From assembly GCA_049964515.1 (NCBI GenBank), contig JBMFXF010000001.1, forward strand, positions 1 to 48,094: 48,094 nt of DNA, given 5' to 3'. The DNA comes from Acetobacteraceae bacterium (lineage in GTDB: Bacteria > Pseudomonadota > Alphaproteobacteria > Acetobacterales > Acetobacteraceae). This document shows positions 7,272 through 41,835 of the stretch, piece after piece. The first letter of the stretch is position 1. The number at the start of each line of letters is the position of its first letter. The notes beneath the pieces are model-generated. The model did no database searches. It was not told where the DNA came from and was given only the letters and a program-made list of their open reading frames with translations. A program made the position numbers and the translations under genes.

Positions 7272-7982
7272 CTAATCCTCGGTCTCGGCGAGCTCCTGCT
7301 CGCCGTCGGTCAGGCGCATCTGCTTGAACGGCAGCGGCTGGTGCTCCTTCAGCATCTCCCGGCCGCGGCGGGCCATGCCGGACAGCGGCTTGCCCTCCAC
7401 CGCCAGGGTCAGGACATCGCCCTTTTTCTCGTCGCCGGCGGCGGTGCCCCAGGTCACGGCGTGGATTCCGGTCTCCCGCACCAGCAACCCCATCAGCGCC
7501 TTGCCGCCCTTGGAGCGATGCAGCGCCATCCGACTGTCCTCCGGCTTCTGGCCCAGCGCCAGGGCGAAGTTCATCCGCAGCCCGCCATGCACCCGTTTCA
7601 GCGCCTTCAGCAGATAGGCGCGGAACGCCGCGGGGGTGGCGAAATCCTTTGCCGCCAGATCGTCGGCGAGTTTCTCGAGACGCTTGCGCTCGGCGGCGAT
7701 GTCGCGGTCGAGCCGGCGCAGCGCGGTGGCCAGCGCGGCCCCGTCGGGGATGGTCTTCGACTTCTCGGCCTCGGCCGCGGCGGCCTGGGCGGCGCCTTCC
7801 ACCTGCTCCAGCCGGTCCTCGGCCTGTTCGATCGTCTCTTCGTCGATCTCGCGGTCCAGGCGCTTGCGCGCCGATTCCCACGCGCGTAACGCGATTTCCA
7901 GCTTGGGCGCGGCGCGCAGCCCCTTGGGCTGGTTGTCCTGCCACCACCGTACCGTCAGTTCCGGCGGATCCTGTCGCGCCAC
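7272..7982 (-). CDS. Hypothetical 236-aa protein: N-terminal module related to the giant-ORF repeats, C-terminal conserved tail ..PLPFKQMRLTDGE..
   Basis: GTG start at 7982 with GGGAGG 6-11 nt upstream on the minus strand. Balanced, charged, helical N-half and a beta-like C-half. A remnant paralogue at 2898-3020 shows the C-terminus is a conserved coding sequence. Confidence 0.8.
   Translation of the reverse strand: MARQDPPELTVRWWQDNQPKGLRAAPKLEIALRAWESARKRLDREIDEETIEQAEDRLEQVEGAAQAAAAEAEKSKTIPDGAALATALRRLDRDIAAERKRLEKLADDLAAKDFATPAAFRAYLLKALKRVHGGLRMNFALALGQKPEDSRMALHRSKGGKALMGLLVRETGIHAVTWGTAAGDEKKGDVLTLAVEGKPLSGMARRGREMLKEHQPLPFKQMRLTDGEQELAETED
7299..7362. repeat. Direct repeat copy B (partner at 2922-2985)
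   Basis: See copy A. It lies inside the 3' end of the intact 236-aa gene. Confidence 0.8.
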
Positions 7983-24700: not shown

Positions 24701-25799
24701 AGCCACCTTTCTGATTCACGCGGTAGCTGGTGTTGGCCGCGCCGGCCTGGTCCAGCACCTCGTTGCCGGAGGCGCTGAGGGTGCCGAAGCTGCCCAGAGT
24801 GCCGAAATCCACCGCCCCGCCGTTGAACTCCAGCGTGCCGGAGCTGGCCACCGAGATACTCGGCGCGGTCAGGGTTCCTTGCGAGAGCGTATAGCTTGCC
24901 ACCCCGCCGCCGCTGATCCCCGGCGCGGCCTGATATCCCGCCGAGCCGATGGTGAGCGTCCCGCCGGACTGGACGGTGTTGGTGCCGCCGCCCTGGACGA
25001 ACTGCGCGTTGCCGCCCGACCCCAGCGACTCGCTGGCGGCCGACAGAGTCCCGCCGTTCAGCGTGTAGGTATCCAGGTTCGGCGTATAGGCGGTGACCAC
25101 GCCGTTGGTGATGGTGGTGGTACCCGACACGCCGAGCTCGAAGCTGCCGGTCACCGTGTTGCTGCCGGCGGATTGGGTGATCGAGCGGGTGGTGTTGGTG
25201 GGGTTGGCCCCATCCAGGATTTCGGCGCCCGAAGCGGTCACCGAGCCGCCCAGGTTGATCTGCATCTGGGAAAAATCGGCCGTGCCGCCGTTGAACTGGA
25301 ACAGCCCCTGGTCCCCCGCGGTGCCGTCGCCGACGGAAATGGTGTTCGCGATCAGCGTGCCGCCGCCCAGGGTATAGGTGCCCTGGCCGTGAAGCAGCCC
25401 GTTGGCCGCGGTCTGGCCGAGCAGAGAGAGCGTCTTGACCGTGTTCGTCCCGTTGAGCTGATCGAACGTGCCGATACCGTTCCCTAACCCCAGCTGCTCG
25501 GTTCCGGCCACAACACTCCCGCCCGAGAGTTCATAGGTGCCCGCGCCGACAAAATAGGGAAAGACGGGATTACCGAGCCCGATTTCCAGCGAAGCGGTAT
25601 CGTTTTGCGCCTGCGACTGCGACAGGGTGCCGCCGCCGCTCCCGATACTTTCCGCCGTGGCCGAGACTCCGGTCGAGGGAACCGTATAATTGGACCCCTC
25701 GTTGACGCCGTTGATGACCACCTGCGCCCGCGCCGGACCCGTCATCGCGATCCCCAGCCCCAGCAGCGCCGCGATCCCCCACCCCCACCGCCGCTTCAT
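21714..25799 (-). CDS. Large secreted beta-helical repeat protein (autotransporter-associated beta-strand repeat-like) with C-terminal PEP-CTERM sorting signal
   Basis: 1361 aa. Signal peptide [25 protein letters not shown]|Q. Dozens of G/T/S/N-rich repeats of the form GGTLTxxG..TxxGG. The C-terminus [27 protein letters not shown] is PEP plus a TM helix plus a basic tail. No beta-barrel translocator domain seen. Confidence 0.85.
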
Positions 25800-27191: not shown

Positions 27192-27193
27192 CC

Positions 27194-28003
27194 ATGGACA
27201 CCGCGACCACCGAATACGCCGGCGGCAAGATGCTGGCCGCCGCCGAGGGCGGCGTGGGGCTGGTGACCTTCAACCAGCCCGAGAAGCGCAACGCCATGTC
27301 GCTCGAGATGTGGGAAGGTCTGGGGGCGATCCTGGACCGGTTCGCCGCCGATCCCGCCATCCGGGTGGTGGTGCTGACCGGGGCGGGCGGCAAGGCCTTC
27401 GTCTCCGGCGCCGACATCTCCCAGTTCGAGAAGACCCGCAACAACGCCGACGCGCAGGTGGAATACGACCGGCTGACCAGCGGCGGGCGCGCCAAGCTGG
27501 CGAATTTCCCCAAGCCCACGATCGCCAAGATCCGCGGCTTCTGCCTGGGCGGCGGGCTGGCGATCGCGATGCAGGCCGATCTGCGCATCGCCGCCGAGGA
27601 CGCGCAGTTCGGCATTCCGGCGGCGCGGCTCTCGATCGCCTATGCGTTCGATGGGCTGCGCAAGCTGGTGCAGCTGGTCGGTCCGGCCCATGCGCGGATG
27701 ATCCTCTATACCGCCAACCGGATCGGCGCGCGGGAGGCGGAGCGGATCGGCCTCATCAACCAAGCGGTGCCCGGCGATGCGCTGGACGAAACGGTGGGCG
27801 CGATCGCGCGCACCATCGCCGACAACGCGCCGCTTTCGGTGTACGCCTCCAAACTCACCATCGGCGAGGTGCTGAAGGACCCGGCCGACCGCAATATGGA
27901 CGCGGTGCGCGCCGCCGGGGTGGCCTGCTTCGACAGCGCCGACTACCGGGAAGGCCGGGCCGCTTTCCTGGAAAAACGGCGGGCTGTTTTCACCGGCCGG
28001 TAA
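27194..28003 (+). CDS. Enoyl-CoA hydratase/isomerase family protein
   Basis: 269 aa. VTFNQPEKRNAMS, VVVLTGAGGKAFVSGADI and IRGFCLGGGLAIAMQADLRIA crotonase motifs. Starts 2 nt after the CoA-transferase stop. Confidence 0.88.
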   Translation: MDTATTEYAGGKMLAAAEGGVGLVTFNQPEKRNAMSLEMWEGLGAILDRFAADPAIRVVVLTGAGGKAFVSGADISQFEKTRNNADAQVEYDRLTSGGRAKLANFPKPTIAKIRGFCLGGGLAIAMQADLRIAAEDAQFGIPAARLSIAYAFDGLRKLVQLVGPAHARMILYTANRIGAREAERIGLINQAVPGDALDETVGAIARTIADNAPLSVYASKLTIGEVLKDPADRNMDAVRAAGVACFDSADYREGRAAFLEKRRAVFTGR

Positions 28004-28086
28004 TCGGCGATCCCCCACGAGGGGGCTTCCAAGAGACAGGCGATCCGGGGCACACTGGCCCCCTTCCGTGGGAGGGTTGCGGCTTC

Positions 28087-28554
28087 ATGGGTCGGTGGTT
28101 CCGAGGTCTGACGGCATTGCTTCTGGTGGCGCTGGTGGCCGGGTGCGGCGCGCCGCCACCGCCGCCGCCGACGGTGGTCAAGCTGACCATCACCGCAACC
28201 AAGGATGTGAACGGCCCGGCCGGCGGGTCCGGCGCGCCGGTGATGCTGCGCGTCTATCAGCTGGCCGGCACCAACAGCTTCACCAACGCGGATTTCTTCC
28301 AGATCTTCAACCATGACGCGGCGACGCTGGGCACCGATTTGGTGCATCAGGACCAGCTCTTGCTGGCCCCCGGCACCACCAAGACGCTGACCCTGAACCC
28401 CAAGGACCAGGTCACCGCGCTCGGATTTTTTGCCGCTTATGGCAATTTCGCCTCCGCCACCTGGCGGGCGACCGCCCCGGTTCCCGCGCACAAGACCACC
28501 GCCATCACCGTCACCGTGGGCGCCAGCGCGATCACCGTGAAGTCGGGCGGATAA
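28087..28554 (+). CDS. tssJ: T6SS outer-membrane lipoprotein TssJ (SciN-like)
   Basis: 155 aa. Lipobox LVAGC. VMLRVYQL..NSFTNADFFQIF is characteristic of TssJ. It is the first gene of the tssJKLM run. Confidence 0.8.
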   Translation: MGRWFRGLTALLLVALVAGCGAPPPPPPTVVKLTITATKDVNGPAGGSGAPVMLRVYQLAGTNSFTNADFFQIFNHDAATLGTDLVHQDQLLLAPGTTKTLTLNPKDQVTALGFFAAYGNFASATWRATAPVPAHKTTAITVTVGASAITVKSGG

Positions 28555-28558
28555 CGGA

Positions 28559-29896
28559 ATGGGCTGGGAAAACCGCGTTGTCTGGTCGGAGGGCCTGTTT
28601 CTCCAGCCCCAGCATCTGCAGCAGCAGAACCGCTATACGGAGCGGCTGATCCGCGCCGCCACCGCCGGGCTGCGCCCGTTCAGCTGGGGGCTGACCCAGC
28701 TCGACGTGGACCCCGACCTGCTGGCGCTGGGGAAATTCGCGGTGCGCGCCGTCGCCGGCATCCTGCCGGACGGCACGCCCTTCGCCGCCCCCGGAGATAC
28801 CGACCCGCCGCGTCCGATCGACCTGCCGGACACGGCGCGCAACAGCGTGGTCTATCTGATCCTGCCCACCCGCCAGCCGGGCGGGGTGGAGATCGCCGGC
28901 GCCGGGCAGGAGGAAACCGTCGCCCGGTTCGGCGCCGTCGAACACGAGGTGACCGACAGCAACGCCGGGTATCAGGGGGTGGCGACGGTTCCGGTGGGGC
29001 GGCTGCGGCTGCGTTTCGCGCTCGAGACCGATGCGCGGGAGGGCTACACCGGCATCGGGCTGGCGAGGATCGCCGATATCCGGGCCGACAAATCCACCCA
29101 GCTCGACGAGAGCTTCATCCCGCCGCTGCTGCTGACCTCGGTTTCCCCCTCGCTGGCGGGGTTCGCCACCCAGCTGCAAGGGCTGCTGCATCATCGCGCG
29201 GAGGCGCTGGCGGGGCGGGTTTCCGAGACCGCCACGCGCGGGGCCGCCGAGATCGCCGATTACATGATGCTGCAACTCTGCAACCGCTACGAGCCGGTGA
29301 TGACCCATCTGGCCAACACCGCCGGGCAGCTGCACCCGGAGACGTTCTATCAGTTCTGCGTCTCGCTGGCCGGGGAGCTTGCCACCTTCACCGAAAGCCG
29401 CAAGCGCCCGGCCGAGTTCCCGCCCTATCGGCACGAGGACCTGACGGCGACCTTCCGCCCGGTGATGACGGCGCTGCGGCAGTCGCTGTCGGCGGTGCTG
29501 GAACAGACCGCGGTGCCGATCCCGTTGCAGGAACGCCGGTTCGGCATCCGGGTGGGACCGATCGCCGATCGCACGCTGGTGGCCAACGGCACCTGGGTGC
29601 TGGCGGTGAAGGCGCAGATGCCGGCCGAACAGCTGCGCCGGGGGTTCCCGAATCTGTGCAAGATCGGGCCGGTGGAACAGATTCGCGAGCTCATCAACGT
29701 GGCGCTGCCCGGCATCCCGGTGCGCGCGCTGCCGGTGGCGCCGCGGCAACTGCCGTACTATGCGGGCACCTCCTATTTCGAGCTCGACCGCAGCTCGCCC
29801 TACTGGGCCGCGCTGGCCCGGTCGGGCGGGATCGCCATCCATGTCACGGGTGACGTGCCGGGTCTCGAGATCGAGTGCTGGGCGATCAGGGGATAG
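28559..29896 (+). CDS. tssK: T6SS baseplate/membrane-complex connector TssK (ImpJ/VasE)
   Basis: 445 aa. N-terminus MGWENRVVWSEGLFLQPQHLQQQNRY is the hallmark TssK start. Confidence 0.9.
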   Translation: MGWENRVVWSEGLFLQPQHLQQQNRYTERLIRAATAGLRPFSWGLTQLDVDPDLLALGKFAVRAVAGILPDGTPFAAPGDTDPPRPIDLPDTARNSVVYLILPTRQPGGVEIAGAGQEETVARFGAVEHEVTDSNAGYQGVATVPVGRLRLRFALETDAREGYTGIGLARIADIRADKSTQLDESFIPPLLLTSVSPSLAGFATQLQGLLHHRAEALAGRVSETATRGAAEIADYMMLQLCNRYEPVMTHLANTAGQLHPETFYQFCVSLAGELATFTESRKRPAEFPPYRHEDLTATFRPVMTALRQSLSAVLEQTAVPIPLQERRFGIRVGPIADRTLVANGTWVLAVKAQMPAEQLRRGFPNLCKIGPVEQIRELINVALPGIPVRALPVAPRQLPYYAGTSYFELDRSSPYWAALARSGGIAIHVTGDVPGLEIECWAIRG

Positions 29897-29899
29897 CGG

Positions 29900-31231
29900 A
29901 TGAGCGACGATCCGTTTGCCGAACCAACGGACAGCGAAGCCACCATCATCCGTCCGCGACCGGGCGGGCGCGGGGCGGCGCCGGCCGCCGCCGCGGCCCC
30001 GGTTCACGCCGCCGGACCGGCGGGGCCGATCCCCACGGTCGGCGCCAACCCGCTGCTGGCCGCCGCCGCCCCGCTGCTGGCCGCGGCGGTGCGCATCGGT
30101 GCCACCCGCGGCACCCCGCCCGACCCGGAGACGCTGCGCCGGGCGATGGTCGAGGCGATCCGCGAGTTCGAGAAGCGCGCGCTGGGCACCGGGCTGGAAA
30201 CCCGCAGCCTGCGCGCCGCCCGCTATGCGCTCTGCGCCACCATCGACGATCTGGTGCTGAGCACCCCCTGGGGCAGTTCCAGCGGCTGGGCGGCGCAAAG
30301 CCTGACCAGCATCTTCCACAACGAGGTGAGCGGGGGCGAGCGGTTCTTCGACATCCTCGAGGACATGCAGCGGGACCTGGGCAAGAATCTCGACGTCGTC
30401 GAGCTGATGTATCTGTGCTGCTCGCTGGGGTTCGAGGGCCGCTACCGGGTGATGAACCGCGGCATCGCGGCGCTGACCGAACTCCGGGACTCGATCTACC
30501 GCACCATCCGCCAGCGCCGGGGGGAGTTCGAGCGCGATCTGTCGCCGCGCTGGAAGGGGCTGAACCTGGCCTATAAGGGCCTGCGCCAGACGGTGCCGAT
30601 CTGGCTGCTGGCGCTGGGCACGCTGGGGCTGGCGGCGCTGATCTATGTGCTGCTCGATTTCGCGCTGGCCGGCGATGCCGGGGTGGCCTACGCGCGGCTG
30701 GCCGGGCTGCCGCCGCACGGGCCGGTGCATGTGGTGCGCACCCAGCCGGCGCCGCCCCCGCCGCCGCCGCCGATCGTGGCCACCTCCGCCGGGCCGAGCG
30801 TGGCCCAGTTCCTCGCCCCCGAGGTGAAGAAGGGCGAGGTGCAGGTGTTCGAGGACGCGCAGGCGATCACCGTGCGCCTCATCAACAACCAGATGTTCCC
30901 GTCCGGGTCGGCGACGTTGAATCCCGCCTACCTGCCGCTGCTGCACAAGATCGCCGCCGCGCTGAAAACCCGGCCGGGCCAGGTGATCGTGAACGGCTAC
31001 ACCGACAACCAGCCGATCCACACCGTGCAGTTCCCCTCCAACTGGGTGCTGTCGCAGGCGCGGGCGGCCGCGGTGGCCGATGTGCTGCGCGGGCAGCTGG
31101 CCAACCCGACGCGGGTGCGCGCGGTGGGCAAGGGTGACGCCGATCCCATCGCGTCGAACGCCACCGCCGCCGGGCGGGCGCAGAACCGAAGAACCGAGAT
31201 CATCATCATGAAGACGGCGCAACTGCCATGA
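29900..31231 (+). CDS. tssL: T6SS membrane-complex protein TssL (DotU family) with C-terminal OmpA/MotB peptidoglycan-binding domain
   Basis: 443 aa. DotU core (RYALCATIDDLVLSTPWG, FFDILE, ELMYLCCSLGFEGRYR), one TM helix, then an OmpA-like domain (NGYTDNQPI.., NWVLSQARAAAVADVL, NRRTEIII). Confidence 0.9.
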   Translation: MSDDPFAEPTDSEATIIRPRPGGRGAAPAAAAAPVHAAGPAGPIPTVGANPLLAAAAPLLAAAVRIGATRGTPPDPETLRRAMVEAIREFEKRALGTGLETRSLRAARYALCATIDDLVLSTPWGSSSGWAAQSLTSIFHNEVSGGERFFDILEDMQRDLGKNLDVVELMYLCCSLGFEGRYRVMNRGIAALTELRDSIYRTIRQRRGEFERDLSPRWKGLNLAYKGLRQTVPIWLLALGTLGLAALIYVLLDFALAGDAGVAYARLAGLPPHGPVHVVRTQPAPPPPPPPIVATSAGPSVAQFLAPEVKKGEVQVFEDAQAITVRLINNQMFPSGSATLNPAYLPLLHKIAAALKTRPGQVIVNGYTDNQPIHTVQFPSNWVLSQARAAAVADVLRGQLANPTRVRAVGKGDADPIASNATAAGRAQNRRTEIIIMKTAQLP

Positions 31232-34200
31232 TGGATTGGCCGCGGCGGTTCATCCGCAGCTTCTGGGGCGAGATGGTCGTCAGCGCGGTGGTGATATCGC
31301 TGCTGATCTGGTTCTTCGGTCCGCTGCTGGGTCTGGGTCGGTTCCACCCGCTCAGCACCGTGTTCGAGCGGGTGATCACCATCACCGCGCTGGTGCTGCT
31401 GTTCGTCATCATCAGCCTGGTCCATGAGCTGCGCGAGAAGAAGCGCGAGAAGGAGCTCGAGGAGGGGCTGGCCGAGGGCGAGCACGAGAAGGACCCGTCC
31501 GAGGAAGCCTCGGCGGAGGAAATCGCGCTGCTGTCGGAGCGGATGAAGGAAGCGCTGGCGCAGCTCAAGAAGGCGAAGCTGGGCGGCAAGTCGCGCCGGT
31601 CGCTGTATCAGCTGCCGTGGTACATGTTCATCGGCCCGCCCGGATCGGGCAAGACCACCGCGCTGGTGAATTGCGGGCTGCGGTTTCCGCTGGCCGAGGG
31701 CGGCGGTGCGCACGCGGTCAAGGGCGTGGGCGGGACCCGCAACTGCGACTGGTGGTTCACCGATCAGGCGGTGATGATCGACACCGCCGGGCGCTACACC
31801 ACCCAGGATTCCGACGCCGCGGTGGACTCCAAGGCCTGGGGCGGGTTCCTGAAACTGCTGAAAAAGCAGCGCCCGCGCCAGCCGCTGAACGGGGTGCTGG
31901 TGGCGATCAGCCTGTCCGATCTCGCGACCCTGCCGGAAGGCGAGCGCTTCGCCCATGCCCGCGCCATCCGCAAGCGGGTGCGCGAGCTGTCCGACGAGCT
32001 CGGCGTGCGGGTGCCGGTCTATGTGATGTTCACCAAGGCCGACCTGGTGGTGGGATTCGTCGAGTTCTTCGACAATCTGGGCAAGGAGGAGCGCGAGCAG
32101 GTCTGGGGCGTGACCTTCGGCCTGGACGACGGCAAATCCGAGGCTGGCACGGTGGGCGAGTTCGGCGCCGAGTTCGACCGGCTGATGCAGCGGCTGAACG
32201 AGCGCATGATGGAGCGGGTCCACCAGGAACCCGACATGCAGCGCCGGCGGCTGATCTGGGGCTTCCCGCAGCAGCTGGCCTCGCTGCGCGATGTCGCCAA
32301 CGAGTTCCTGACCGAGGCGTTCCGCCCGTCGCGGCTGGAAACCCGGCCGTTGCTGCGGGGCATTTATCTCACCTCCGGCACCCAGGACGGCACCCCGATC
32401 GACCGGCTGCTGGGCAGCATGGCCGGCCGCTTCGGGCTGGCGCGGCAGGCGGTGGCGGCATTCAGCGGCGCCGGGCGCAGCTATTTCCTCTCGCGCCTGG
32501 TCTCCGGCGTGATCTTCGGCGAGGCCGGGCTGGTCAGCCGCGACCCGAAGGTGGAAAAGCGGCAGAAGCTGATGAACTACGCCACCTGGGGCGTGTGCGG
32601 GGTGGTGCTGCTGGGGCTGATCGCGGCCTGGACCATCAGCTTTGTTGCCAACCGTGACGCGATGGACGCGCAACAGGCGGCGATCGCGCGCTACAACAAG
32701 CAATACGCGGCGATCGTGCGGGCGGGAGCGGATGATACGCATCTGGTGACGGTGGCGCCGGCGCTGGAAACCCTGCGCACGCTGCCGGACGGCTGGGCCA
32801 CCCGCGAATCGCCGGTGCCGTGGTCGGCCACCTGGGGCCTCTATCAGGGCACCCAGCTGCACGCGGCGGCCAATGCGGCCTATGCCAACGCGCTGGACGG
32901 GTTGCTGCTGCCGCGGCTGCTGGCGCGGCTCGAGCGGCAGATGCAAGCCAATCTGGACAAGCCGAATTTCCTTTACGAAGCGCTGGAAGTCTATCTGATC
33001 CTGGGCCGGCAGGGGCCGCTGGACCCGGCGCTGGTGCGGCACTGGATGCACGAGGATTTCGCCGCCTCCTACCCCGGCGAGGAGAATGCGCCGCTGCGGG
33101 CCTCGCTGAACGCCGATGTGGCGGCGATGCTGCAGTTCCCGCTGCCCGCGGTGCCGCTGAACGGCCCGCTGGTGGCGGAAGTGCGCGGCGTGCTGACCCG
33201 CAAGCCGTTCGCCGATTATCTGTACGACAGCATCATCCACAGCCAGGTGGCGCGGCGGCTGCCGGAATGGACGGTGGCCGAGAATGCCGGGCCGGCCGGC
33301 TCGCGGGTGTTCGCGCTGCGCAACGGCAAGCCGCTGGACACCGGGATGCCGGGTATTTTCACCTGGGACGGCTACCACAAGACATTCCTGCCGCTGATCC
33401 CGGCGGTAACCAAGCAGGCTTCCGAACAGAGCTGGGTGCTGGGCCGCCCGCAATCGACCAGCGAGGAGGCGCTGACCAAGCTGCGCCATGACGTGCTGAG
33501 CCTGTATCTGGACGACTACACCCGTCGCTGGGATGCGCTGCTGGCCAATGTCGCGCTGAAGCCCTTCACTACCCTGGCGCAGGGGCAGAACGAGCTGTTC
33601 CTGCTGTCGGCCCCCGATTCACCGCTGCGGGACCTGTTGAAGGCGATCGACGAGCAGACCCAGCTCAGCCACCACGCCGCCGGCTCCGCCAAGGGCGAGA
33701 AGGCCAAGACCGTGCGGGAGGGGCTGACCGATATCGCCAAGGAACGGCTGGCCGCCGGGGAAACGCTGGAGGAAGGCGAGATCGGCAACGTGCTGGGCCA
33801 GGCCTTCGGCCGCGGCGCCGAGGGCAAGCCGATCGACCCCGCCAAGCGGGTGGACGAGCATTTCGCGGCGCTGCACGAGTTCGTGGACGGCAAGAAGCCC
33901 GGCTCGCCGCATCTGGACGCGGTGATCGCGCAGATCCAGCAGATCTATCAGGGCATCAACCAGGCGGCGAACGCGCCCAACCAGGGCCAGGCGCTGCTGG
34001 GAATGGTGGCGGGCGGCGGCGCCGGCGGCGGCGCGGCCGGCGGGGCGGCCGCGCTGGCGCAGGTGGCGCAGGAGGTGCCGAAGCCGGTGGCGGCGATGCT
34101 GCAGACCGTATCCGCCTCGAGCTCGGCGGTGACCGCGAGCGGGGCCGCCACCCAGATCTCGGATGCGTGGAAATCGAAGGTCCTGCCGCTCTGCCAGGAG

Positions 34201-34848
34201 GCGTTCAACCGCTACCCGTTCGTGCGCGGCAGCGGCGAGGACGTGCCGCTGGGCGACTTCACCCATCTGCTGGGTCCGCACGGGCTGATGAAGAAGTTCT
34301 TCGACAAATACCTGGCCGCCCTGGTCAACACCACCGTCACGCCCTGGCAATGGCAATCGGCCGACCACACCAAGCTGGGGCTGGCTCCCGGGGCGTTGGC
34401 CGAGTTCGAGCGGGCCGATCAGATCCGCGAGGCGCTGTTCCCCGACGGCTCGAAGATGCAGGTGAAGTTCCAGCTGACGCCGGTCTCGGCCGATGCCGGG
34501 GTGGGGCAGATCCGCATCCAGATCGGCAAGCAGACGCTCACCTGGGCGCATGGGCCGGCGCAGCCGACCAACCTCACCTGGCCTGGCGCCGGCGGCAATG
34601 ACGAGGTGCGGGTGATTATGACCCCTGCCAATGGCGGGCCGGCCACGGTGATCGAGAATGACGGGCCGTGGTCGCTGCTGCGGATGCTGGATGCGGCGCG
34701 GGTGATCCCGACCGGGGCACCGGACCGGTTCCAGATCGTGTTCTCGAGCCCGCAGGGCAGCGCCACCTTCCGGCTGAACGCGAACAGCGTGCGCAACCCG
34801 TTCAACATGGCGGCGCTGCGGGCGTTCCGCTGCCCGCCCAATCTGTAA
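31228..34848 (+). CDS. tssM: T6SS membrane-complex protein TssM (IcmF family)
   Basis: 1206 aa. N-terminal TM helices, Walker A GPPGSGKTT, DTAGRYTTQD and long IcmF-like periplasmic region. ATGA overlap with tssL. Confidence 0.92.
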   Translation: MMDWPRRFIRSFWGEMVVSAVVISLLIWFFGPLLGLGRFHPLSTVFERVITITALVLLFVIISLVHELREKKREKELEEGLAEGEHEKDPSEEASAEEIALLSERMKEALAQLKKAKLGGKSRRSLYQLPWYMFIGPPGSGKTTALVNCGLRFPLAEGGGAHAVKGVGGTRNCDWWFTDQAVMIDTAGRYTTQDSDAAVDSKAWGGFLKLLKKQRPRQPLNGVLVAISLSDLATLPEGERFAHARAIRKRVRELSDELGVRVPVYVMFTKADLVVGFVEFFDNLGKEEREQVWGVTFGLDDGKSEAGTVGEFGAEFDRLMQRLNERMMERVHQEPDMQRRRLIWGFPQQLASLRDVANEFLTEAFRPSRLETRPLLRGIYLTSGTQDGTPIDRLLGSMAGRFGLARQAVAAFSGAGRSYFLSRLVSGVIFGEAGLVSRDPKVEKRQKLMNYATWGVCGVVLLGLIAAWTISFVANRDAMDAQQAAIARYNKQYAAIVRAGADDTHLVTVAPALETLRTLPDGWATRESPVPWSATWGLYQGTQLHAAANAAYANALDGLLLPRLLARLERQMQANLDKPNFLYEALEVYLILGRQGPLDPALVRHWMHEDFAASYPGEENAPLRASLNADVAAMLQFPLPAVPLNGPLVAEVRGVLTRKPFADYLYDSIIHSQVARRLPEWTVAENAGPAGSRVFALRNGKPLDTGMPGIFTWDGYHKTFLPLIPAVTKQASEQSWVLGRPQSTSEEALTKLRHDVLSLYLDDYTRRWDALLANVALKPFTTLAQGQNELFLLSAPDSPLRDLLKAIDEQTQLSHHAAGSAKGEKAKTVREGLTDIAKERLAAGETLEEGEIGNVLGQAFGRGAEGKPIDPAKRVDEHFAALHEFVDGKKPGSPHLDAVIAQIQQIYQGINQAANAPNQGQALLGMVAGGGAGGGAAGGAAALAQVAQEVPKPVAAMLQTVSASSSAVTASGAATQISDAWKSKVLPLCQEAFNRYPFVRGSGEDVPLGDFTHLLGPHGLMKKFFDKYLAALVNTTVTPWQWQSADHTKLGLAPGALAEFERADQIREALFPDGSKMQVKFQLTPVSADAGVGQIRIQIGKQTLTWAHGPAQPTNLTWPGAGGNDEVRVIMTPANGGPATVIENDGPWSLLRMLDAARVIPTGAPDRFQIVFSSPQGSATFRLNANSVRNPFNMAALRAFRCPPNL

Positions 34849-34872
34849 GAGCCCGATCCGGGAGGACCCAAG

Positions 34873-37011
34873 ATGCCGAGCGACACGTCCGCGAGTTCCA
34901 CGCCGATGGTGACGCTGTCGGTGTCCCCCGACCCCGGGTTCACGCTGAATCTGGACCGGCTGGAGGGCACCGAGCGCCTGGGCCGGCCGTTCACCTACCG
35001 GCTGTTCCTGTCCAGCACCAAGGCCAAGCCCAACCTCACCTCGGTGCTGGGCAGTTCGGTCACGGTGACGCTGACCAACCCCGACAAATCGAAGCGCTAT
35101 TTCAACGGGATCGTCGGACGGATCGCCTATGCGGGGATGCGCGCCGGCGGGCGCACCTATGTGATGGAGCTACGACCGTGGATCTGGCTGCTGTCGCACC
35201 GCAAGGATTGCCGGATTTTCCAGAACCAGACCGTCTATGACGTCATCACCACGGTGTGCAAGGATGCGGGGTTCACCGATCTCGAGGACAACCGCAAAGG
35301 CTCGCCCAAAGCCGGCAGCCAGAGCCTGGAATACTGCGTGCAGTACGACGAGACCTCGCTGGACTTCATCACGCGGCTGATGGAAGAATACGGCATCTAT
35401 TATTACTACAAGCACAGCGATGGCAAGCACACCATCGTGCTGGCGGACGATCCGTCGTCGCACGATTCGATCGGCGCGGCGCTGCCGTTCGCCCTGCGCC
35501 AGACCGGATCGCGCGCGGTGCAGGAGCATCTGTGGCAGTGGTCCTCTGAGCTTTCCGTGCAATCGGGCAAGGTCACGTATTCGGACTACAATTTCGAAAC
35601 TTCCACGGTGCCGTTGACCACCTCGACCGGGGCCGGTCCGGCGCCCTATAAATACGGGGATTTCGAGCTGTTCGACTACCCGGGCCGGTATCTGACCGTC
35701 TCCGACGGCACCCCGCTCACCGATGTGCGGCTACAGGGTCTGGCGTGGCAGGAACTGGTGAAGTTCGGTACCACCAATTCGCGCAAGCTGGCCACAGGGT
35801 CGAAGTTCTCGATGTCCGGCTTCTTCGATGCCGCCGAGAACGGCAGCTACGTGGTGATCGAGGCGACCTACGCGCTCAACCTGTCGGAGGCGAAATCCGC
35901 CACCGCCGGGGAGACGCGCCACGTCTTCACCGTACGGTTCCAGGCACTCACCGACACCACCACCTTCCGCCTGCCGCGGGTGACGCCGCGCCCGCGCATC
36001 CACGGGGCGCAGACGGCCCGCGTGGTGACCACCCCCACGGGTGCGGCCACCGACGAGATCGTGACCGACGAATACGGCCGCATCCTGGTGCTGTTCCCGT
36101 GGGCACGACCGGATTCGCCGGCGACGCAGACGGAGACGCAGCAGAACGCACAGAAGGCCTCGTGCTGGATCCGGGTGGCGCAGCTGTGGGCGGGCGTGTC
36201 CTGGGGGGCGATGTTCATCCCCCGGGTCGGGATGGAGGTGGTGGTCACCTTCCTGGAAGGCGACCCGGACCGGCCGCTGGCGGTGGGCTGCGTCTATAAC
36301 GACAAGCAGACCGTGCCCTACGCGCTGCCCGGCGAGAAGACCAAATCCACCATCAAGAGCAATTCGTCGGAGGGCGGCGGCGGGTTCAACGAGCTGCGCT
36401 TCGAGGACAAGAAGAACAGCGAGGAGGTCTATTTCCACGCCCAGAAGGACTACAACAAGGAAGTCCTGAACAACGAGACGGTGACGATCACCCAGAACAC
36501 CACCACCACGGTGCAGAAGGGGAACCGGTCGGTCACGGTGTCGGAGGGAAACAATTCGCTCACGGTCTCGAAGGGAAACAACTCGACCACCGTTTCCCAG
36601 GGGAATGAATCACTCACCGTCTCGCAAGGCACCAGCACCACGAAGGTGTATGGCGATACCACGCTGAAGGTCGAATCCGGCGACCACAAAATCACGGTTG
36701 ATGAAGGTGACAGCAGCCTGACGGTGACGCTCGGCGACCACAAGATCGAGGCCACCGCCGGCTCCTCCACCTACAAGACCGGCGGCGACATCACCATCGA
36801 TTCCGGTGGCAGCATCACCATCAAGGCCGCCAACCAGATCACCATCCAGGTGGGGTCGAGTTCGATCACCATCACCTCCGACAGCATCTCGGTCTCCACC
36901 TCCAGCTTCTCGGTCAGCGGGAAGTCCATCTCCCTCGCCGCCGGCGGCAGCAGCCAGTCGATGTCGAGCACCTCGATTTCGCTCACCTCGCCCTCCATCG
37001 CGCTGAACTAG
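34873..37011 (+). CDS. vgrG: T6SS spike protein VgrG (no C-terminal effector extension evident)
   Basis: 712 aa. gp27-like N-terminus (LEGTERLGRPFTYRLFL, YFNGIV, ELRPWIWLL, FQNQTVYDVI, EYCVQYDETSLDFITRLMEEYGIYYYY). gp5 OB-fold region (CWIRVAQLWAG..WGAMFIPRVGMEVVVTFLEGDPDRPL). C-terminal beta-helix repeats (VTVSEGNNSLTVSKGNNSTTVSQGNESLTVSQG...). Confidence 0.92.
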   Translation: MPSDTSASSTPMVTLSVSPDPGFTLNLDRLEGTERLGRPFTYRLFLSSTKAKPNLTSVLGSSVTVTLTNPDKSKRYFNGIVGRIAYAGMRAGGRTYVMELRPWIWLLSHRKDCRIFQNQTVYDVITTVCKDAGFTDLEDNRKGSPKAGSQSLEYCVQYDETSLDFITRLMEEYGIYYYYKHSDGKHTIVLADDPSSHDSIGAALPFALRQTGSRAVQEHLWQWSSELSVQSGKVTYSDYNFETSTVPLTTSTGAGPAPYKYGDFELFDYPGRYLTVSDGTPLTDVRLQGLAWQELVKFGTTNSRKLATGSKFSMSGFFDAAENGSYVVIEATYALNLSEAKSATAGETRHVFTVRFQALTDTTTFRLPRVTPRPRIHGAQTARVVTTPTGAATDEIVTDEYGRILVLFPWARPDSPATQTETQQNAQKASCWIRVAQLWAGVSWGAMFIPRVGMEVVVTFLEGDPDRPLAVGCVYNDKQTVPYALPGEKTKSTIKSNSSEGGGGFNELRFEDKKNSEEVYFHAQKDYNKEVLNNETVTITQNTTTTVQKGNRSVTVSEGNNSLTVSKGNNSTTVSQGNESLTVSQGTSTTKVYGDTTLKVESGDHKITVDEGDSSLTVTLGDHKIEATAGSSTYKTGGDITIDSGGSITIKAANQITIQVGSSSITITSDSISVSTSSFSVSGKSISLAAGGSSQSMSSTSISLTSPSIALN

Positions 37012-37017
37012 GGCCCG

Positions 37018-38445
37018 ATGTCCGACCTCGCCACCATCATCCGCCGCCCGCGCCCCGCGCCGCCCCCGCCGGCGTTGCTGGCCGGGCTGCGGGCGCTGGC
37101 GGAGCTGCCGGTTCGCCCCGAGGGCCCGCCGCCCAACGATCCGCGGCGCGCGATCGAGGCGATCATCGCCGAGCTCGACCGCATCATGGGCGAGATGATC
37201 GAGCGGATCCTGCACCACCCGGAGTTCCAGGCCCTCGAGGCCACCTGGCGGGGCGTGCGGCTGTTGCTGGACGGCGCCGACGGCGACCCGGCCGTGAAGA
37301 TCCGGCTGTTCGACATCTCCAAGCGCGAACTCGCGCGCACGCTTCGCAAGTTCCGCGGCACCGCCTGGGACCAGAGCCCGCTGTTCCGCCGCATCTACGA
37401 CGAGGAATACGGCCAGTTCGGCGGCCAGCCGTTCGGCGTGCTGGTAGGCGACTACGCCTTCGACCACAGCGCGCCGGACGTGACCTTGCTGTCCGATATC
37501 GCGCGCATCGCCGCCGCCGCGCATGTCCCGTTCATCGCTGCCGCCGCGCCCAGCCTGATGCAGATGGACAGCTGGTCGGAACTCGCGAACCCGCGCGACA
37601 TCTCCCGCCTGTTCCGCACCCCGGAATACACCGCCTGGCGGGCGCTGCGGCAGGGCGAGGACACGCGCTATATCGGCCTCTGCCTGCCGCGCTTCCTGGC
37701 CCGGCTGCCCTATGGCTACCGCACCGAACCGGTCGATGCCTTCGCCTTCGAGGAGGAGGTGGACGGGCCGGACGACCGCAACTTCCTGTGGGCCAACCCG
37801 GCCTATGCGATGGCCGGCAACATCGCCCGCGCGTTCCGCCTCTATGGCTGGTGCGTGCGCATCCGCGGTATTGACGGCGGCGGGCTGGTGCAGGGGTTGC
37901 CGGAATATCATTTCCCTACCGCGGATGGTGACGCCGACCCGCGCTGTTCGGTGGAGATCGCGCTGTCGGAGCGGCGGGAATCCGAGCTCGCGGCCAACGG
38001 GCTGATCCCGCTGGTGCATCTGCGCAATGGCGACGGGACGGCCTTCGTCGGCGCCCCGTCGTTGCAGGAGCCCGCGGTCTATGACGCCCCCGACGCCACC
38101 GCCAACGCGGTGATGTCGGCCCGGCTGCCCTATATCTTCGCCACCTGCCGATTCGCGCATTATCTGAAATGCATGGTGCGCGATAAGATCGGAACCTCGA
38201 TGGATGGGCCGGCGATCGAACGCTGGCTGCAGAGCTGGATCAACGGCTACGTCGATGGGTCTCCCCAGACCTCGTCGGAGGAGCACAAGGCCTCGCATCC
38301 GCTGGCGGATGCCTCGATCAAGCTCGAGGCACGGCAAGATCAGCCTGGCACCTACGAGGCACGGTTCTTCATCCGCCCGCACTATCAGCTGGAAGCGTCC
38401 ACGGCGACGGTGCGGTTGTTGTCGAAACTCGCGGGGACGTCGTGA
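37018..38445 (+). CDS. tssC: T6SS contractile sheath large subunit TssC (VipB/ImpC/EvpB)
   Basis: 475 aa. ILHHPEFQALEATWRGVRLLL, PRFLARLPYG, RIRGIDGGGLVQGLP, LPYIFATCRFAHYLKCMVRDKIG and FIRPHYQLE are full-length TssC hallmarks. Starts 6 nt after the vgrG stop, with no tssB in front. Confidence 0.93.
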   Translation: MSDLATIIRRPRPAPPPPALLAGLRALAELPVRPEGPPPNDPRRAIEAIIAELDRIMGEMIERILHHPEFQALEATWRGVRLLLDGADGDPAVKIRLFDISKRELARTLRKFRGTAWDQSPLFRRIYDEEYGQFGGQPFGVLVGDYAFDHSAPDVTLLSDIARIAAAAHVPFIAAAAPSLMQMDSWSELANPRDISRLFRTPEYTAWRALRQGEDTRYIGLCLPRFLARLPYGYRTEPVDAFAFEEEVDGPDDRNFLWANPAYAMAGNIARAFRLYGWCVRIRGIDGGGLVQGLPEYHFPTADGDADPRCSVEIALSERRESELAANGLIPLVHLRNGDGTAFVGAPSLQEPAVYDAPDATANAVMSARLPYIFATCRFAHYLKCMVRDKIGTSMDGPAIERWLQSWINGYVDGSPQTSSEEHKASHPLADASIKLEARQDQPGTYEARFFIRPHYQLEASTATVRLLSKLAGTS

Positions 38446-38460
38446 ACACGGGAGGACCCT

Positions 38461-39180
38461 ATGGCTGACAATGACTCCACGGACATGCTGATGGCGGTGA
38501 CGGGGCAGAACGGGGGCAAGCTGGCGGGTCAGGGGCTGGCCGCGCTCGACACCAGCGATACGGAGATGCTCGACGGGATCACCGCCGGATTTTTCACCGA
38601 GATCCAGGATATCAGCTTCGGCATCGGGGTGGAGGACAGCGAAACCTCAAGCTCCTCGGGCCCGGTGAACGCGGTGCACGACATGCAGGCGCAGACGCTC
38701 GAGACGGTGCAGAAGCACCTCGAGAACGTGCTGGCCGAGCAGGTCAAGGGCAAGATGCCCAAGATGGGCACCCGGAGCAAAGGCAAGCAGTTCAAGAATT
38801 TCGTCGATACCGGCCGGGTCACCGATGACGACGATAATCCGGTCTATTCCACCGTGTTCGACCCGATCACGATCACCCGCGCGATCGACCAGATGTCGCC
38901 ATTCATTCTTTACAACTGCGCCTACCAGAAGGCGCTGCAGAGCATCGTGGTCGTGAAGCGGAAAGTCACCGGAAATACCGGGTTCCACGAAGCGTTCGTC
39001 CGGCTGCAGTTCGACGAATGCCTGATCACCGCGGTGGACTGGGACCACGGCGATACGTTCACCGAGAAGATGAAATTCGTCTATCGCACGCTTACCGTGA
39101 AATATCGCCCGCAAAGCAACGACGGCACCCTGGCGGCGCCCAAGACCATGACCTACTCGATGACGATGCAGTCAGCCTAG
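38461..39180 (+). CDS. hcp: Hcp-family inner tube protein with a large internal insertion
   Basis: 239 aa. It aligns by eye to P. aeruginosa Hcp1 segments: DMLMAVTGQNGGK~DMFIKIGDVKGES, IQDISFGIG~IDVLAWSWG, ITITRAIDQMSPFILYNCAYQKALQSIVVVKRK~LSFTKYIDKSTPNLMMACSSGKHYPQAKLTIRK, TEKMKFVYRTLTVKYRPQSNDG~TENVTLNFAQVQVDYQPQKADG. About 75 aa separate the second and third blocks, against about 17 in Hcp1. Confidence 0.8.
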   Translation: MADNDSTDMLMAVTGQNGGKLAGQGLAALDTSDTEMLDGITAGFFTEIQDISFGIGVEDSETSSSSGPVNAVHDMQAQTLETVQKHLENVLAEQVKGKMPKMGTRSKGKQFKNFVDTGRVTDDDDNPVYSTVFDPITITRAIDQMSPFILYNCAYQKALQSIVVVKRKVTGNTGFHEAFVRLQFDECLITAVDWDHGDTFTEKMKFVYRTLTVKYRPQSNDGTLAAPKTMTYSMTMQSA

Positions 39181-40380
39181 CGCGCTCGCCAACAGCTCGG
39201 CGTCGCACCCTTGCGTGCAATGCCGGGCCAGGAACGGCGAACCGCCAAGCGTGGCCTGCATCCGCTCGGCGAAGCTCATCGCCAGCAGCCCGGTACCGGC
39301 GGCCGGATGCGTCTCCGGCACCTGCCATTTCAGCGCCGCCATCGCCTTCGCCTCCAGCGCCGCCTTCACCGACCCGGCGGTGACCAGCCGCGACGGTTGC
39401 GGCGGCAGCTGCGGCAGGCGCTGCATGATTTCCGCCAGCGCCGTCTCGGGCGTCTTGCCGGCCAGCTTCACCCCCAGCTGCTCCGACACCTGGCGCAGGG
39501 TCGCGTTCAACGATGCCTGCACCTTCGCCGCCACCGCGGCATAGCCCTGCTGCAACGGATTGCCGCCCAGACTGGCGGTGAGGCGCTTCACCGCGGACAT
39601 GGCCGAGGACAGCGTGTTCATCACCGCGGTCTCCTCCGCCGTCAGCGTCGGCACTTTCACCTGGGTCAGGCTGCGCATGGCCGCCGCGAGTTTCGCAGTG
39701 TCGCCAGGAGCGATGCCAAGCTGGCGGGTGGCGGCGATCATCGGCGCCAGCTCGCGCAGGCGCTGCGCGAACGGCTCCCACTGCGCCATCGGCTGCCCGC
39801 CGGGGTTGGTGAACTGCTTCAGCTGCGCCGGGGTGGGCGCGAAGACCGGGCTCGAAGTGGCGGATTGCACCGCCGTCACCGCGTCGTTCAAGGTCGCCAG
39901 CCGCACCCAGGGACGGGGCGAGAATTGCGCCACCGCCGGATTATGCGCCAGCGCCGCCAGCCGCGCCTTCATGGTGGCCAGCGCCGCGGAAAACGCCTGC
40001 GCCTGCGCCGGATGCAGCAGATCCAGCCCCAGCTGCGCCTGCGCCTGCGCGCGCAGCTGCCCCAGCAGCGAAACGGTGCCGCCCTGCAACGGCGTCATCT
40101 GCATCTGCGGCAGCGGGGTGCGCAGCCATTGCGGGTCCGGGGTGAATGCCGGCCCCGGCAGCTCGCGGGTGCCCAGCCATTGCCACAGCGCCTTGGCGAT
40201 GTTTTCCCCGCGCAGCCCGGTGCCCACCAACGGCAGGGTTGGCGGCGCCGCGCTCCCGCCGGCCGGGGCCGAGACGGACGCCGACGCGCCGGCCGACGCC
40301 CCGCCGGCCGGCGGGGGATGGGAGAACTGCGACACGAAATGTTCGATCTTGCCGACCGAGGCGTGGCAGAAGCAGACCAA
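39172..40380 (-). CDS. Hypothetical 402-aa Ala/Leu/Gln-rich helical protein, last gene of the tagF-pppA transcription unit
   Basis: Minus-strand frame has GC-rich third positions and a balanced composition. Both plus-strand ORFs over this region are Arg/Gly/His-rich shadows. Starts 10 nt after the pppA stop. Its 3' end overlaps the hcp 3' end by 9 nt (convergent). No family recognised. Confidence 0.7.
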   Translation of the reverse strand: MVCFCHASVGKIEHFVSQFSHPPPAGGASAGASASVSAPAGGSAAPPTLPLVGTGLRGENIAKALWQWLGTRELPGPAFTPDPQWLRTPLPQMQMTPLQGGTVSLLGQLRAQAQAQLGLDLLHPAQAQAFSAALATMKARLAALAHNPAVAQFSPRPWVRLATLNDAVTAVQSATSSPVFAPTPAQLKQFTNPGGQPMAQWEPFAQRLRELAPMIAATRQLGIAPGDTAKLAAAMRSLTQVKVPTLTAEETAVMNTLSSAMSAVKRLTASLGGNPLQQGYAAVAAKVQASLNATLRQVSEQLGVKLAGKTPETALAEIMQRLPQLPPQPSRLVTAGSVKAALEAKAMAALKWQVPETHPAAGTGLLAMSFAERMQATLGGSPFLARHCTQGCDAELLASALG

Positions 40381-40390
40381 CCCCGCCTCC

Positions 40391-41116
40391 TCAATCCGCT
40401 TCCGTGGCGATCACCACGGCGGTCACGTTGTCATTGGTCTTGCGCTCGAGGGCCGCGGCCACCAGCGCCTCCGCCGGCGAGGACTCGAGCGGGCCGGCCA
40501 GCAGCATCTGCAACTCCGCCGCGTCCACCGCCTTGCTCAGACCGTCGCTGCACAGCAGGAACCGGTCCCCGGACTGAAGCCGGTCGGTGACCTTGTCCAG
40601 CGCGAAATCCTCCACCGCCGCCCCCACCGCGCGGGTGATGACGTTGTTATAGGGATGATGCTCGGCGGCCTCGGCGGTGATCTGCCCGGAATCCACCAGC
40701 TCCTGCACCAGGCTGTGGTCGCGCGAGATCTGCGTCAGCGTGCCGTCGCGCAGCAGATAGGCCCGCGAATCCCCAGCCCACAGGCAGGCGAAATACCCGT
40801 CGCGCACCACCAGCATCACCACCGTGGAGGCGATGGTGACATCCGGGCCGCGGCTTTCCGCCTCCTCCCGCAAGGCCTCGTGAACGCCGGTCACCCGCGC
40901 CCGCACCATCGCCAGCAGCTCGGCGGCGGGAAGCTCGGTGGGAATGGCCTCCAGCGCGGCGACGATCATGCCGGAGGCGACCTCCCCGGCATCGTGCCCG
41001 CCGGCGCCGTCGGCCACCGCCCACAGCCCCAGGTCGGGGCGGTTGACCAGCGCATCCTCGTTATGGTCGCGCACCGCGCCGACATCGGTGGCTGCCCAGG
41101 AGAGCAGGGTGCTCAC
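40391..41116 (-). CDS. pppA: PP2C-family Ser/Thr phosphatase (T6SS PppA-like)
   Basis: 241 aa from GTG 41116 (GTGA overlap with the tagF stop). TDVGAVRDHNEDA, WAVADGAGGHDAGEVAS, GDSRAYLLRDG, LLCSDGL and DNVTAVV are PP2C motifs. Confidence 0.85.
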   Translation of the reverse strand: MSTLLSWAATDVGAVRDHNEDALVNRPDLGLWAVADGAGGHDAGEVASGMIVAALEAIPTELPAAELLAMVRARVTGVHEALREEAESRGPDVTIASTVVMLVVRDGYFACLWAGDSRAYLLRDGTLTQISRDHSLVQELVDSGQITAEAAEHHPYNNVITRAVGAAVEDFALDKVTDRLQSGDRFLLCSDGLSKAVDAAELQMLLAGPLESSPAEALVAAALERKTNDNVTAVVIATEAD

Positions 41117-41835
41117 AGCGCCTCCGCGGCGGTGCCGGCGATCATCGCCAGGAACGCCTCGGCACCGGGCAAGGTGGCGAAGCGGCGATGGCCGGGTTCG
41201 ACCCGCGGTCCGCCCTCGGTCCAGAACGCGGCGCCATCGGCCAGATCGGGGGCCGCGATCGGGGCGGCGCCCATCAGCCCCGGCAGGGCATCGGGCGCGA
41301 TGTCCTGTTCCAGCGCGGCGCGGCCGGCGGCTTCGCAACGGTCCAGCCAGTCGGCATCGCCGCCGGCCTGGCGGGCGGCGCCGGCGGGAAACAACGCGGC
41401 GAAGCTCATCGGGAAATAGCGCCCGGCGCGATCGACGCTGGGCAGCATCACCCCCAGCACCGCCTCCGGCCCGGCCAGACCGGGGGCCAGGGCGAAGCGC
41501 CAGACCGGCGCCTCCAGCCAGGCCGCCACCCAGCCGGCGCCCAGACTGGACTGGCTGCCGCCCAGCCGGTCGGCCAGCCAGGCATCCCATGGCCGGGTGA
41601 ACGCGGCCGGCAGCTGCAAGGTGACGAAATCCCCGCGCGAGGGCAGCTTGCCGTAGAACCCGGCGATGATGGCGGCTCCGGTCACGGGCGCCGACCCGGC
41701 CGGGCGCGAGTGCGTGCGTGAAGCTGCCAAGACGTCATCGCGCGGCCGGTTCCGAACTGGAGGATGGACAATTCCCCTGCCGGGCCGAGTTTGTCTCAAA
41801 GCACCGCGTCGGCGCAAGCGTTCCGGCGCCGGCAA
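41113..41835 (-). CDS. tagF: T6SS-associated regulator TagF (ImpM, DUF2094)
   Basis: GFYGKLPSRGDFV, PVWRFAL and LGVMLPSVDRAGRYFPMSFAALF are TagF hallmarks. The start is uncertain: ATG 41835 gives a 50-aa Arg-rich leader, and the in-frame GTG at 41685 (..VTGAAIIAGFYGKLP) is a plausible true start. Confidence 0.8.
   Translation of the reverse strand: MPAPERLRRRGALRQTRPGRGIVHPPVRNRPRDDVLAASRTHSRPAGSAPVTGAAIIAGFYGKLPSRGDFVTLQLPAAFTRPWDAWLADRLGGSQSSLGAGWVAAWLEAPVWRFALAPGLAGPEAVLGVMLPSVDRAGRYFPMSFAALFPAGAARQAGGDADWLDRCEAAGRAALEQDIAPDALPGLMGAAPIAAPDLADGAAFWTEGGPRVEPGHRRFATLPGAEAFLAMIAGTAAEAL

Follow-up and report, generated by a model that had tools for sequence, protein, structure and literature searches.

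The H1 type VI secretion system (H1-T6SS) of Pseudomonas aeruginosa is encoded by two divergent operons, fha1-tssJ1-tssK1-tssL1-tssM1-tagF1-pppA-ppkA and tssA1-tssB1-tssC1-hcp1-tagJ1-tssE1-tssF1-tssG1-clpV1-vgrG1, and the T6SS of Vibrio cholerae by a main cluster plus auxiliary hcp-vgrG clusters. The group-5 T6SS of Agrobacterium tumefaciens has two non-redundant TssC homologues, TssC40 and TssC41, with the role of the extra one unexplained (PMC3702570, PMC5813230), and this was the only precedent found in our literature searches for a second or orphan tssC. Here we compare these systems with a T6SS locus at positions 28087–41835 of a 48,094-nt stretch of DNA (the window) from an Acetobacteraceae bacterium (assembly GCA_049964515.1, contig JBMFXF010000001.1, positions 1–48,094), in which tssJ-tssK-tssL-tssM are followed by vgrG and by a tssC and an hcp gene which we refer to as tssC2 and hcp2. 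We consider it probable that this locus is the envelope-and-spike half of a two-part, H1-like proteobacterial T6SS, and we refer to the window block as module B and to the block tssA-tssB-tssC1-hcp1-tagJ-tssE-tssF-tssG-clpV, which is found in its relatives, as module A.

The likeness to the H1-T6SS lies in the (fha-)tssJ-K-L-M order of module B and its tagF and pppA genes (fha is found in relatives only), and in the order of module A in the relatives, including TagJ/ImpE between hcp and tssE (TagJ co-occurs solely with the ClpV1-type class; PMC4239648). Three Pseudomonas loci (L055, L067 and L073) also have the tssJ-K-L-M order, divergent from tssA in an H1-type layout, and a reading of the locus as re-ordered, made earlier from the sequence alone (the sequence-only reading), therefore stands for the appended vgrG-tssC2-hcp2, which is unusual, but not for tssJ-K-L-M. 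Unlike the H1-T6SS, in which vgrG comes behind clpV, the locus has vgrG behind tssM, with an additional tssC and hcp downstream; its tagF-pppA pair is convergent, whereas in H1 it lies within the operon; ppkA was not seen and fha was undetectable in the window; a TssB-TssC' fusion gene (BCfus) and orf402 are added; and the two halves would occupy separate genomic sites. As in V. cholerae, one machine would be encoded by several loci with spike and tube paralogues away from the sheath and baseplate genes, but the detached piece here has the whole membrane complex and TssK and not just hcp, vgrG and effectors, and it has a sheath large-subunit paralogue and no effector–immunity pair. It is thus not an orphan or auxiliary hcp-vgrG island, as it has tssJ, tssK, tssL and tssM and no PAAR or recognisable effector gene. 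The likeness to Agrobacterium is that of one system with two TssC-family proteins. There, however, the two tssC genes are consecutive after tssB, while tssC2 follows vgrG in the other module from TssC1, as judged from the relatives, and encodes a full-length TssC (588 bits) that belongs to a separate clade, so that this is not a double-TssC arrangement of the Agrobacterium type.

Gene content and conservation of the locus

The window has a G+C content of about 70%, and real genes were told from spurious open reading frames (ORFs) by codon-position G+C and by Pfam and NCBIfam scans. On the + strand (28087–39180) the order is tssJ-tssK-tssL-tssM-vgrG-tssC-hcp with gaps of 4, 3, -4, 24, 6 and 15 nt, and this unit faces tagF-pppA-orf402 on the - strand (39172–41835); in both respects the ORF coordinates and the domain matches agree with the sequence-only reading. 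The first gene, tssJ (28087–28554, +), encodes the 155-aa outer-membrane lipoprotein of the membrane complex (T6SS-SciN, 105 bits; TIGR03352, 117 bits), and the TssJ start, MGRWFRGLTALLLVALVAGC at ATG 28087, has the lipobox LVAGC. It is followed by tssK (28559–29896, +), the connector between the baseplate and the membrane complex (T6SS_VasE, 529 bits, full length), by tssL (29900–31231, +), in which Pfam places DotU and a C-terminal OmpA-type peptidoglycan-binding domain, and by the IcmF-like tssM (31228–34848, +), which overlaps tssL by 4 nt and has the IcmF-related_N, IcmF-related, IcmF_helical and IcmF_C domains. The TssJ-TssL-TssM membrane complex and TssK are all represented by full-length, high-scoring Pfam and TIGRFAM matches. 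The spike gene vgrG (34873–37011, +) has Phage_GPD, Phage_base_V and Gp5_trimer_C domains (TIGR03361, 541 bits) and no toxin domain. Next comes tssC2 (37018–38445, +), which has VipB and VipB_2 domains (TIGR03355, 588 bits against a cut-off of 271) and which, as had been noticed earlier, starts 6 nt after the vgrG stop with no tssB alongside, and finally hcp2 (38461–39180, +), which encodes a 239-aa Hcp whose T6SS_HCP match covers profile positions 47–129 only. All seven core proteins match the standard T6SS-i Pfam models, which places the locus outside the non-canonical subtypes (Francisella ii, Bacteroidota iii and Amoebophilus iv); TssJ, VgrG and TssC2 score above their NCBIfam cut-offs and Hcp2 scores below its own.

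On the opposite strand, orf402 (39172–40380, -) encodes a conserved T6SS-associated protein with the motifs MxCFC and CxxGCDA and no Pfam or NCBIfam match, pppA (40391–41116, -) a PP2C serine/threonine phosphatase (PP2C_2), and tagF (41113–41685, -) the post-translational T6SS repressor (TagF_N, 127 bits). The pppA gene has a GTG start at 41116, which overlaps the tagF stop by 4 nt, and a GGAGG ribosome-binding site, and tagF has a likely GTG start at 41685 although its longest ORF extends to 41835. A promoter and terminator scan of the locus gave no signal above the shuffled expectation. The flanking genes belong to acyl-CoA metabolism, as had been said, with CoA-transferase III and enoyl-CoA hydratase (27194–28003) on the left and PrpD and HMGL (HMG-CoA-lyase-like) on the right. 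The accompanying claim that the locus ends at these genes is correct for the window but not for more distant relatives, in which the block opens with BCfus and fha, separated by a small reverse ORF.

Seven of the 13 core T6SS genes are present in the locus, and the full set is found neither there nor in the window as a whole. No Pfam match to TssA, TssE, TssF, TssG, ClpV or PAAR was obtained among all large ORFs of the 48 kb, and tblastn of the relatives' canonical TssA/B/E/F/G/ClpV and PAAR proteins against the window found none down to E<0.2, which upholds the list of missing genes in the sequence-only reading (tssA/B/E/F/G, clpV and PAAR). Canonical TssB is likewise absent from the window by Pfam and tblastn, so that there is no adjacent tssB-tssC pair, and the sole TssB-like sequence forms the N-terminal portion of BCfus (8072–9817), at 41 bits against a cut-off of 97. 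No effector or immunity genes were recognised at the locus, again as had been reported.

A scan of the window's TssC protein against one genome per species returned 80 loci (all loci are referred to here by L numbers), the closest of which are from Acetobacteraceae-type metagenome-assembled genomes (MAGs) with TssC identities of 98, 97 and 95%. The same gene order was found in about 20 Acetobacteraceae/Rhodospirillales-type genomes with TssC 60–98% identical, with tblastn confirming tssJ-K-L-M-vgrG-tssC-hcp in L002, L004–L006, L008–L010, L012, L014, L023, L028 and L080, and tblastn of the window proteins placing orf402, pppA and tagF usually convergent downstream of the block. The architecture is a clade-wide trait and no one-off deletion, and the synteny comparison that had been proposed as a check found both a conserved order and a second block. 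It might be argued that the locus is a decaying, non-functional remnant of a once-complete cluster, given that the window lacks six core genes, that the fha, orf182 and PAAR genes of relatives are missing here and that BCfus lies apart from the block. However, the ten genes are all intact and closely packed, and the same content is kept from 98% down to 60% TssC identity. Ratios of non-synonymous to synonymous substitution (dN/dS) were calculated for nine locus genes (PppA was not computed) against L002, the closest full-length relative, at an unsaturated synonymous divergence (dS) of 0.15–0.63, and range from 0.04 to 0.27, with structural genes at 0.04–0.12 (TssK 0.04, TssC2 0.06) and higher values for TagF (0.17), orf402 (0.22) and Hcp2 (0.27). 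Such low values at unsaturated dS indicate that the locus is maintained by purifying selection, and the remnant explanation, to which we give hardly any credence, fails on this point.

Module A in related genomes

Three MAGs, ZJ5.bin38, JOPF069 and MFD04580.bin.1.170, have both blocks on separate contigs, with module B at L003 (TssC 95% identical to that of the window), L007 and L012, and the second locus at L011, L029 and L038, respectively. The second loci have Pfam matches to ImpA_N, VipA, ImpE/TagJ, GPW_gp25, TssF, TssG and ClpV-type AAA. In L011 the order is tssA-tssB-tssC-hcp-tagJ-tssE, with TagJ (ImpE, 140 bits) between hcp and tssE, and the contig breaks off early in tssF; in L029 module A extends through tssF, tssG and clpV.

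Both blocks are found on one contig in CAWISK010000004.1 (304 kb), where a cluster assembled from the overlapping loci L048, L083 and L086 has all 13 core genes and spans about 39 kb from tssA to tagF. The first part is tssA-B-C1-hcp1-E-F-G-clpV, followed by about 9 kb of genes of no assigned function plus an insertion sequence (IS) element, and the second part is BCfus-orf182(reverse)-fha-tssJKLM-vgrG-tssC2-hcp2-hcp2-orf361-PAAR-MTase-tagF, in which orf361 is the orf402 homologue. This supercluster has a single membrane-complex set, that of module B, and no second tssJKLM, tssK or vgrG lies beside module A in L048 or L083. A metagenome scan with the fusion protein provided further joined contigs, and altogether module A is joined to module B via the fusion gene in 16 contigs. 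These include L092 (clpV-BCfus-orf184-fha-tssJKLM-vgrG), L095, L101 and L103 (tssA to tssF divergent from BCfus-orf184-fha-tssJKLM-vgrG), and L096, L100, L110, L117, L118, L121 and L142; a compact linked form, clpV-BCfus-tssK-vgrG-tssC2-hcp2-hcp2, is found in L062. In about 10 contigs, the window lineage included, module A is missing from the available flank.

The split-system interpretation, one of two offered by the sequence-only reading, is thus supported by the second loci L011 and L029, by CAWISK010000004.1 and by the 16 joining contigs. That reading also held that a second locus with tssA-B-E-F-G-clpV would leave only the split organisation and the gene order as unusual; such loci are present in the relatives and probable in the source genome, and with them it is indeed the split organisation and the vgrG-tssC-hcp order that remain unusual. 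The other interpretation, a minimal or atypical contractile apparatus, is unlikely: none of the relatives shows module B alone replacing TssE/F/G, TssA or ClpV in any recognisable way. In its self-sufficient form, with BCfus as the small subunit of TssC2 and orf402 or other uncharacterised proteins as the baseplate, we consider it very improbable. The proposal draws on the co-occurrence of BCfus and TssC2 on the same contigs (at least 12 are common to both match lists), on L081, L082 and L084, where BCfus heads module B with no module A within 10 kb, and on the conservation of orf402, orf182 and orf236, which belong to no known family. Against this, module A is adjacent in the 16 joined contigs and three further cases have it in the same MAG, BCfus also follows clpV in L064, L068 and L074, for whose genomes no TssC2 locus was returned, and so is not tied to TssC2, and orf402 has no TssA-like profile match and an all-helical model of low confidence. 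Furthermore, we know of no contractile injection system without gp25/gp6/gp7-type wedge proteins.

A further explanation is that the genome has a complete canonical T6SS equipped with a membrane complex, TssK and VgrG, and that the locus is a second set of membrane complex, spike and variant sheath and tube parts, an alternative front end that would compete for the same pool of TssA, TssB, TssE/F/G and ClpV and give two firing modes from a single baseplate toolkit. In L038 (from the same MAG as L012) module A has tssL-tssM beside it and a tandem tssC-hcp duplication, L017 and L064 have tssL-tssM and an orf402-like gene upstream of tssA, and TssC2 and Hcp2 are distinct, conserved paralogues, all of which favours such a set. 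However, no tssJKLM, tssK or vgrG is found beside module A within the available flanks of L011, L015, L026 and L031, and the same is true of L048/L083/L086, where the one-contig supercluster has the membrane-complex set of module B and no other. A module A without its own tssJKLM, tssK and vgrG requires their supply in trans, and on this evidence we regard two complete front ends as unlikely in the lineage of the window.

In the two-part system that we favour, module B supplies the TssJ-TssL-TssM complex, the docking protein TssK, the VgrG spike and the convergent regulatory operon tagF-pppA-orf402, as its domain content shows, while the TssE/F/G wedge, TssA, the TssB/TssC1 sheath, Hcp1, TagJ and ClpV would come from module A elsewhere, as the relatives suggest. 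The usual state would be one large cluster with module A joined to module B through BCfus and fha, and in the lineage of the window module B would have become detached, leaving BCfus and the neighbouring orf236 18 kb away among housekeeping genes.

Several observations weigh against this two-part system. The presence of module A in the genome of the window is inferred from a sibling (TssC 95% identical) that belongs to a different GTDB species, and the MAG bins behind this may be imperfect. Resolvase, ParA-like and RepA_C genes lie directly before module A in L011 (4685–8085, with tssA onwards following), which suggests that module A may be plasmid-borne or on a variable replicon, and may therefore be absent from some strains; it is mainly for this reason that its presence in the window's genome is uncertain. 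No module A was found near the locus on the complete chromosome behind L005/L081 (90%-identity clusters of six TssB sequences had no member on this 5.15-Mb contig, a result which is uninformative). In L017, L038 and L064 module A has its own tssL-tssM alongside, so that module B there would be a second front end. We also note an additional tagF-pppA pair upstream in L011.

TssC2, Hcp2 and the TssB-TssC' fusion

In a phylogenetic tree with 60-odd canonical TssC proteins, which group by taxon, the TssC2 proteins form a monophyletic clade on a long branch away from the rest. TssC2 is 55–59% identical to the canonical TssC of many lineages, and its two Pfam domains are retained, as is a D-[FL]-x-x-[LI]-[LI]-x-R motif at the N-terminus that resembles the one in TssC1. 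The best 120 protein clusters in a search for this type were all TssC2, with identities of 61–95%, and in a search of plasmids all PLSDB matches were below 60% identity and were ordinary tssC genes. Domain 2 of solved sheaths is built from interlaced strands of TssB and TssC (PMC5807055). Since the fold of TssC in these structures is completed by TssB strands, TssC2 can be presumed still to depend on a TssB partner. Our analysis suggests that this partner is most likely the TssB of module A, and the pair would then be an alternative protomer.

Hcp2 can be aligned over its whole length with the Hcp1 of module A, with the Gly-rich loop replaced by a hypervariable charged insertion of 30–75 aa (homologues were compared from L012, L028, L062, L063, L080 and L086). 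Between relatives in which TssC2 and TssM are 97–98% identical, Hcp2 is 73–79% identical and nearly all of the change is in the inserted loop; tandem Hcp2 copies are found in several relatives. We infer that TssC2 and Hcp2 are conserved paralogues and not the products of decay, and the likeliest role of Hcp2 is in variant tube rings or as a carrier of cargo linked to the VgrG of the locus. It should also be noted that a second tssB, 69–87% identical to the canonical gene, lies 1–2 kb after clpV in eight Rhodobacteraceae loci (L022, L027, L039, L040, L053, L060, L069 and L072), and extra sheath genes in these marine bacteria suggest that the phenomenon may be more widespread than the clade.

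The fusion gene (8072–9817, +) is the sole other sheath-like gene in the window and lies 18 kb upstream of the block. It encodes a 581-aa protein consisting of a TssB core, a disordered linker, the TssC N-terminal domains and an acidic tail, and lacks the C-terminal VipB_2 part which forms the inner handshake layer. The tail is disordered, acidic and Ala/Pro-rich with two copies of DLDALLASL (up to three in the family consensus), a sequence similar to D-F-x-x-L-L, the motif at the N-terminus of TssC1 and TssC2. An AlphaFold2 model of the protein has a predicted local distance difference test (pLDDT) score of 67, and each of its nine significant Foldseek matches (E at or below 0.001) is to a sheath-subunit chain of a T6SS (VipB/TssC type). 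A search for the family returned about 3000 matches including ordinary sheath proteins, the best 120 clusters all belonging to the family and being 62–97% identical. In limited full-text searches of the literature, which are not proof of absence, neither a TssB-TssC fusion family nor vgrG-tssC-hcp modules were found to have been described.

The sequence-only reading had named the fusion as a candidate non-canonical part, and it does belong to the system, as it heads the block in other genomes: in L081, L082, L083 and L084 the block begins BCfus-orf182-fha. No TssC2 locus was returned for the genomes of L064, L068 and L074, in which BCfus follows clpV, and it is therefore not simply the small subunit of TssC2. 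In many genomes BCfus comes immediately after clpV. As a guess, it may act as a ClpV adaptor or a sheath cap. Beyond this, a single T6SS across this alphaproteobacterial clade may have two sheath large subunits and BCfus in distinct roles: TssC2 and Hcp2, which are always encoded immediately behind VgrG, might form a specialised spike-proximal or alternative sheath–tube layer, with BCfus capping the sheath or recruiting ClpV; we offer such a heterotypic sheath tentatively and think it rather unlikely, and to our knowledge no heterotypic T6SS sheath has been described.

BCfus and its divergent neighbour orf236 (7272–7982, -) sit between secDF and a SpoU methylase gene, and the same housekeeping neighbourhood is found in the close relative L087, with orf236 in the same position; the orf236 protein is 41% identical to its equivalents in L081 and L082. 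Adjoining these two genes, 2947–7188 (+) encodes a helical protein (about 1350 aa) that matched no family. Its N-terminal motif ADWVKRVLGV recurs in small proteins encoded behind clpV, of 156 and 230 aa in L083 and, as a weaker match, of 569 aa in L029, and in L087 a PIN toxin–antitoxin pair occupies the position of this gene. One possibility is that the 2947–7188 protein is T6SS cargo that varies between strains and bears a shared N-terminal tag.

Accessory genes and significance

Homologues of orf402 occupy the same place in relatives, or lie between tssM and tssA in L017 and L064. The protein is helical, with an N-terminal MxCFC and a C-terminal CxxGCDA motif that are invariant in the alignment, and cysteine motifs at both ends suggest metal binding or a disulfide. 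Its AlphaFold2 model, made from a 7-sequence alignment, is all-helical with a pLDDT of 50 and is unconvincing. We also considered orf402 as a divergent TssA, but an hhalign comparison of the 13-member orf402 family with a 59-member TssA family gave a probability of 0.3%, and orf402-like genes coexist with a true tssA in L017 and L064. Proposed earlier as a second non-canonical part, orf402 belongs to the system by virtue of its conserved place but is not TssA.

The fha, orf182 and PAAR genes of relatives were undetectable in the window, and no fha remnant was found upstream of tssJ, where 27192–28086 encodes the enoyl-CoA hydratase. At the corresponding place in L081 (12483–14219), an FHA-domain protein (FHA and T6SS_FHA_C) and a 182-aa reverse ORF are just upstream of tssJ. 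Neither the locus nor the large ORFs of the window, as scanned with Pfam, yielded a ppkA. With fha and orf182 undetectable, ppkA not found, and tagF and pppA kept, the regulatory circuit may be rewired.

The third candidate part that had been proposed, a giant repeat protein (21714–25799, -), is rejected. In its 1361 aa, a signal peptide is followed by beta-helix-like repeats rich in Gly, Thr, Ser and Asn and by a PEP-CTERM tail (the C-terminal sorting signal VPTPEP followed by a hydrophobic stretch and RR), and these features identify a surface protein unrelated to the T6SS.

A T6SS without a wedge, TssA, TssB and ClpV would be very surprising, and the evidence points instead to an ordinary machine encoded in two places. 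Locus-based T6SS finders would call the system of this genome incomplete, and module A may sit on a separate replicon. What is unusual across the clade is the orphan TssC2, the loop-expanded Hcp2 after vgrG, the sheath-like BCfus and the conserved orf402. TssC2 and Hcp2 behind VgrG, together with BCfus, represent a widespread and apparently unstudied elaboration of the H1-type T6SS, and the clade provides a second, independent case, after TssC40 and TssC41 of Agrobacterium, in which to ask why some T6SSs retain a second TssC.

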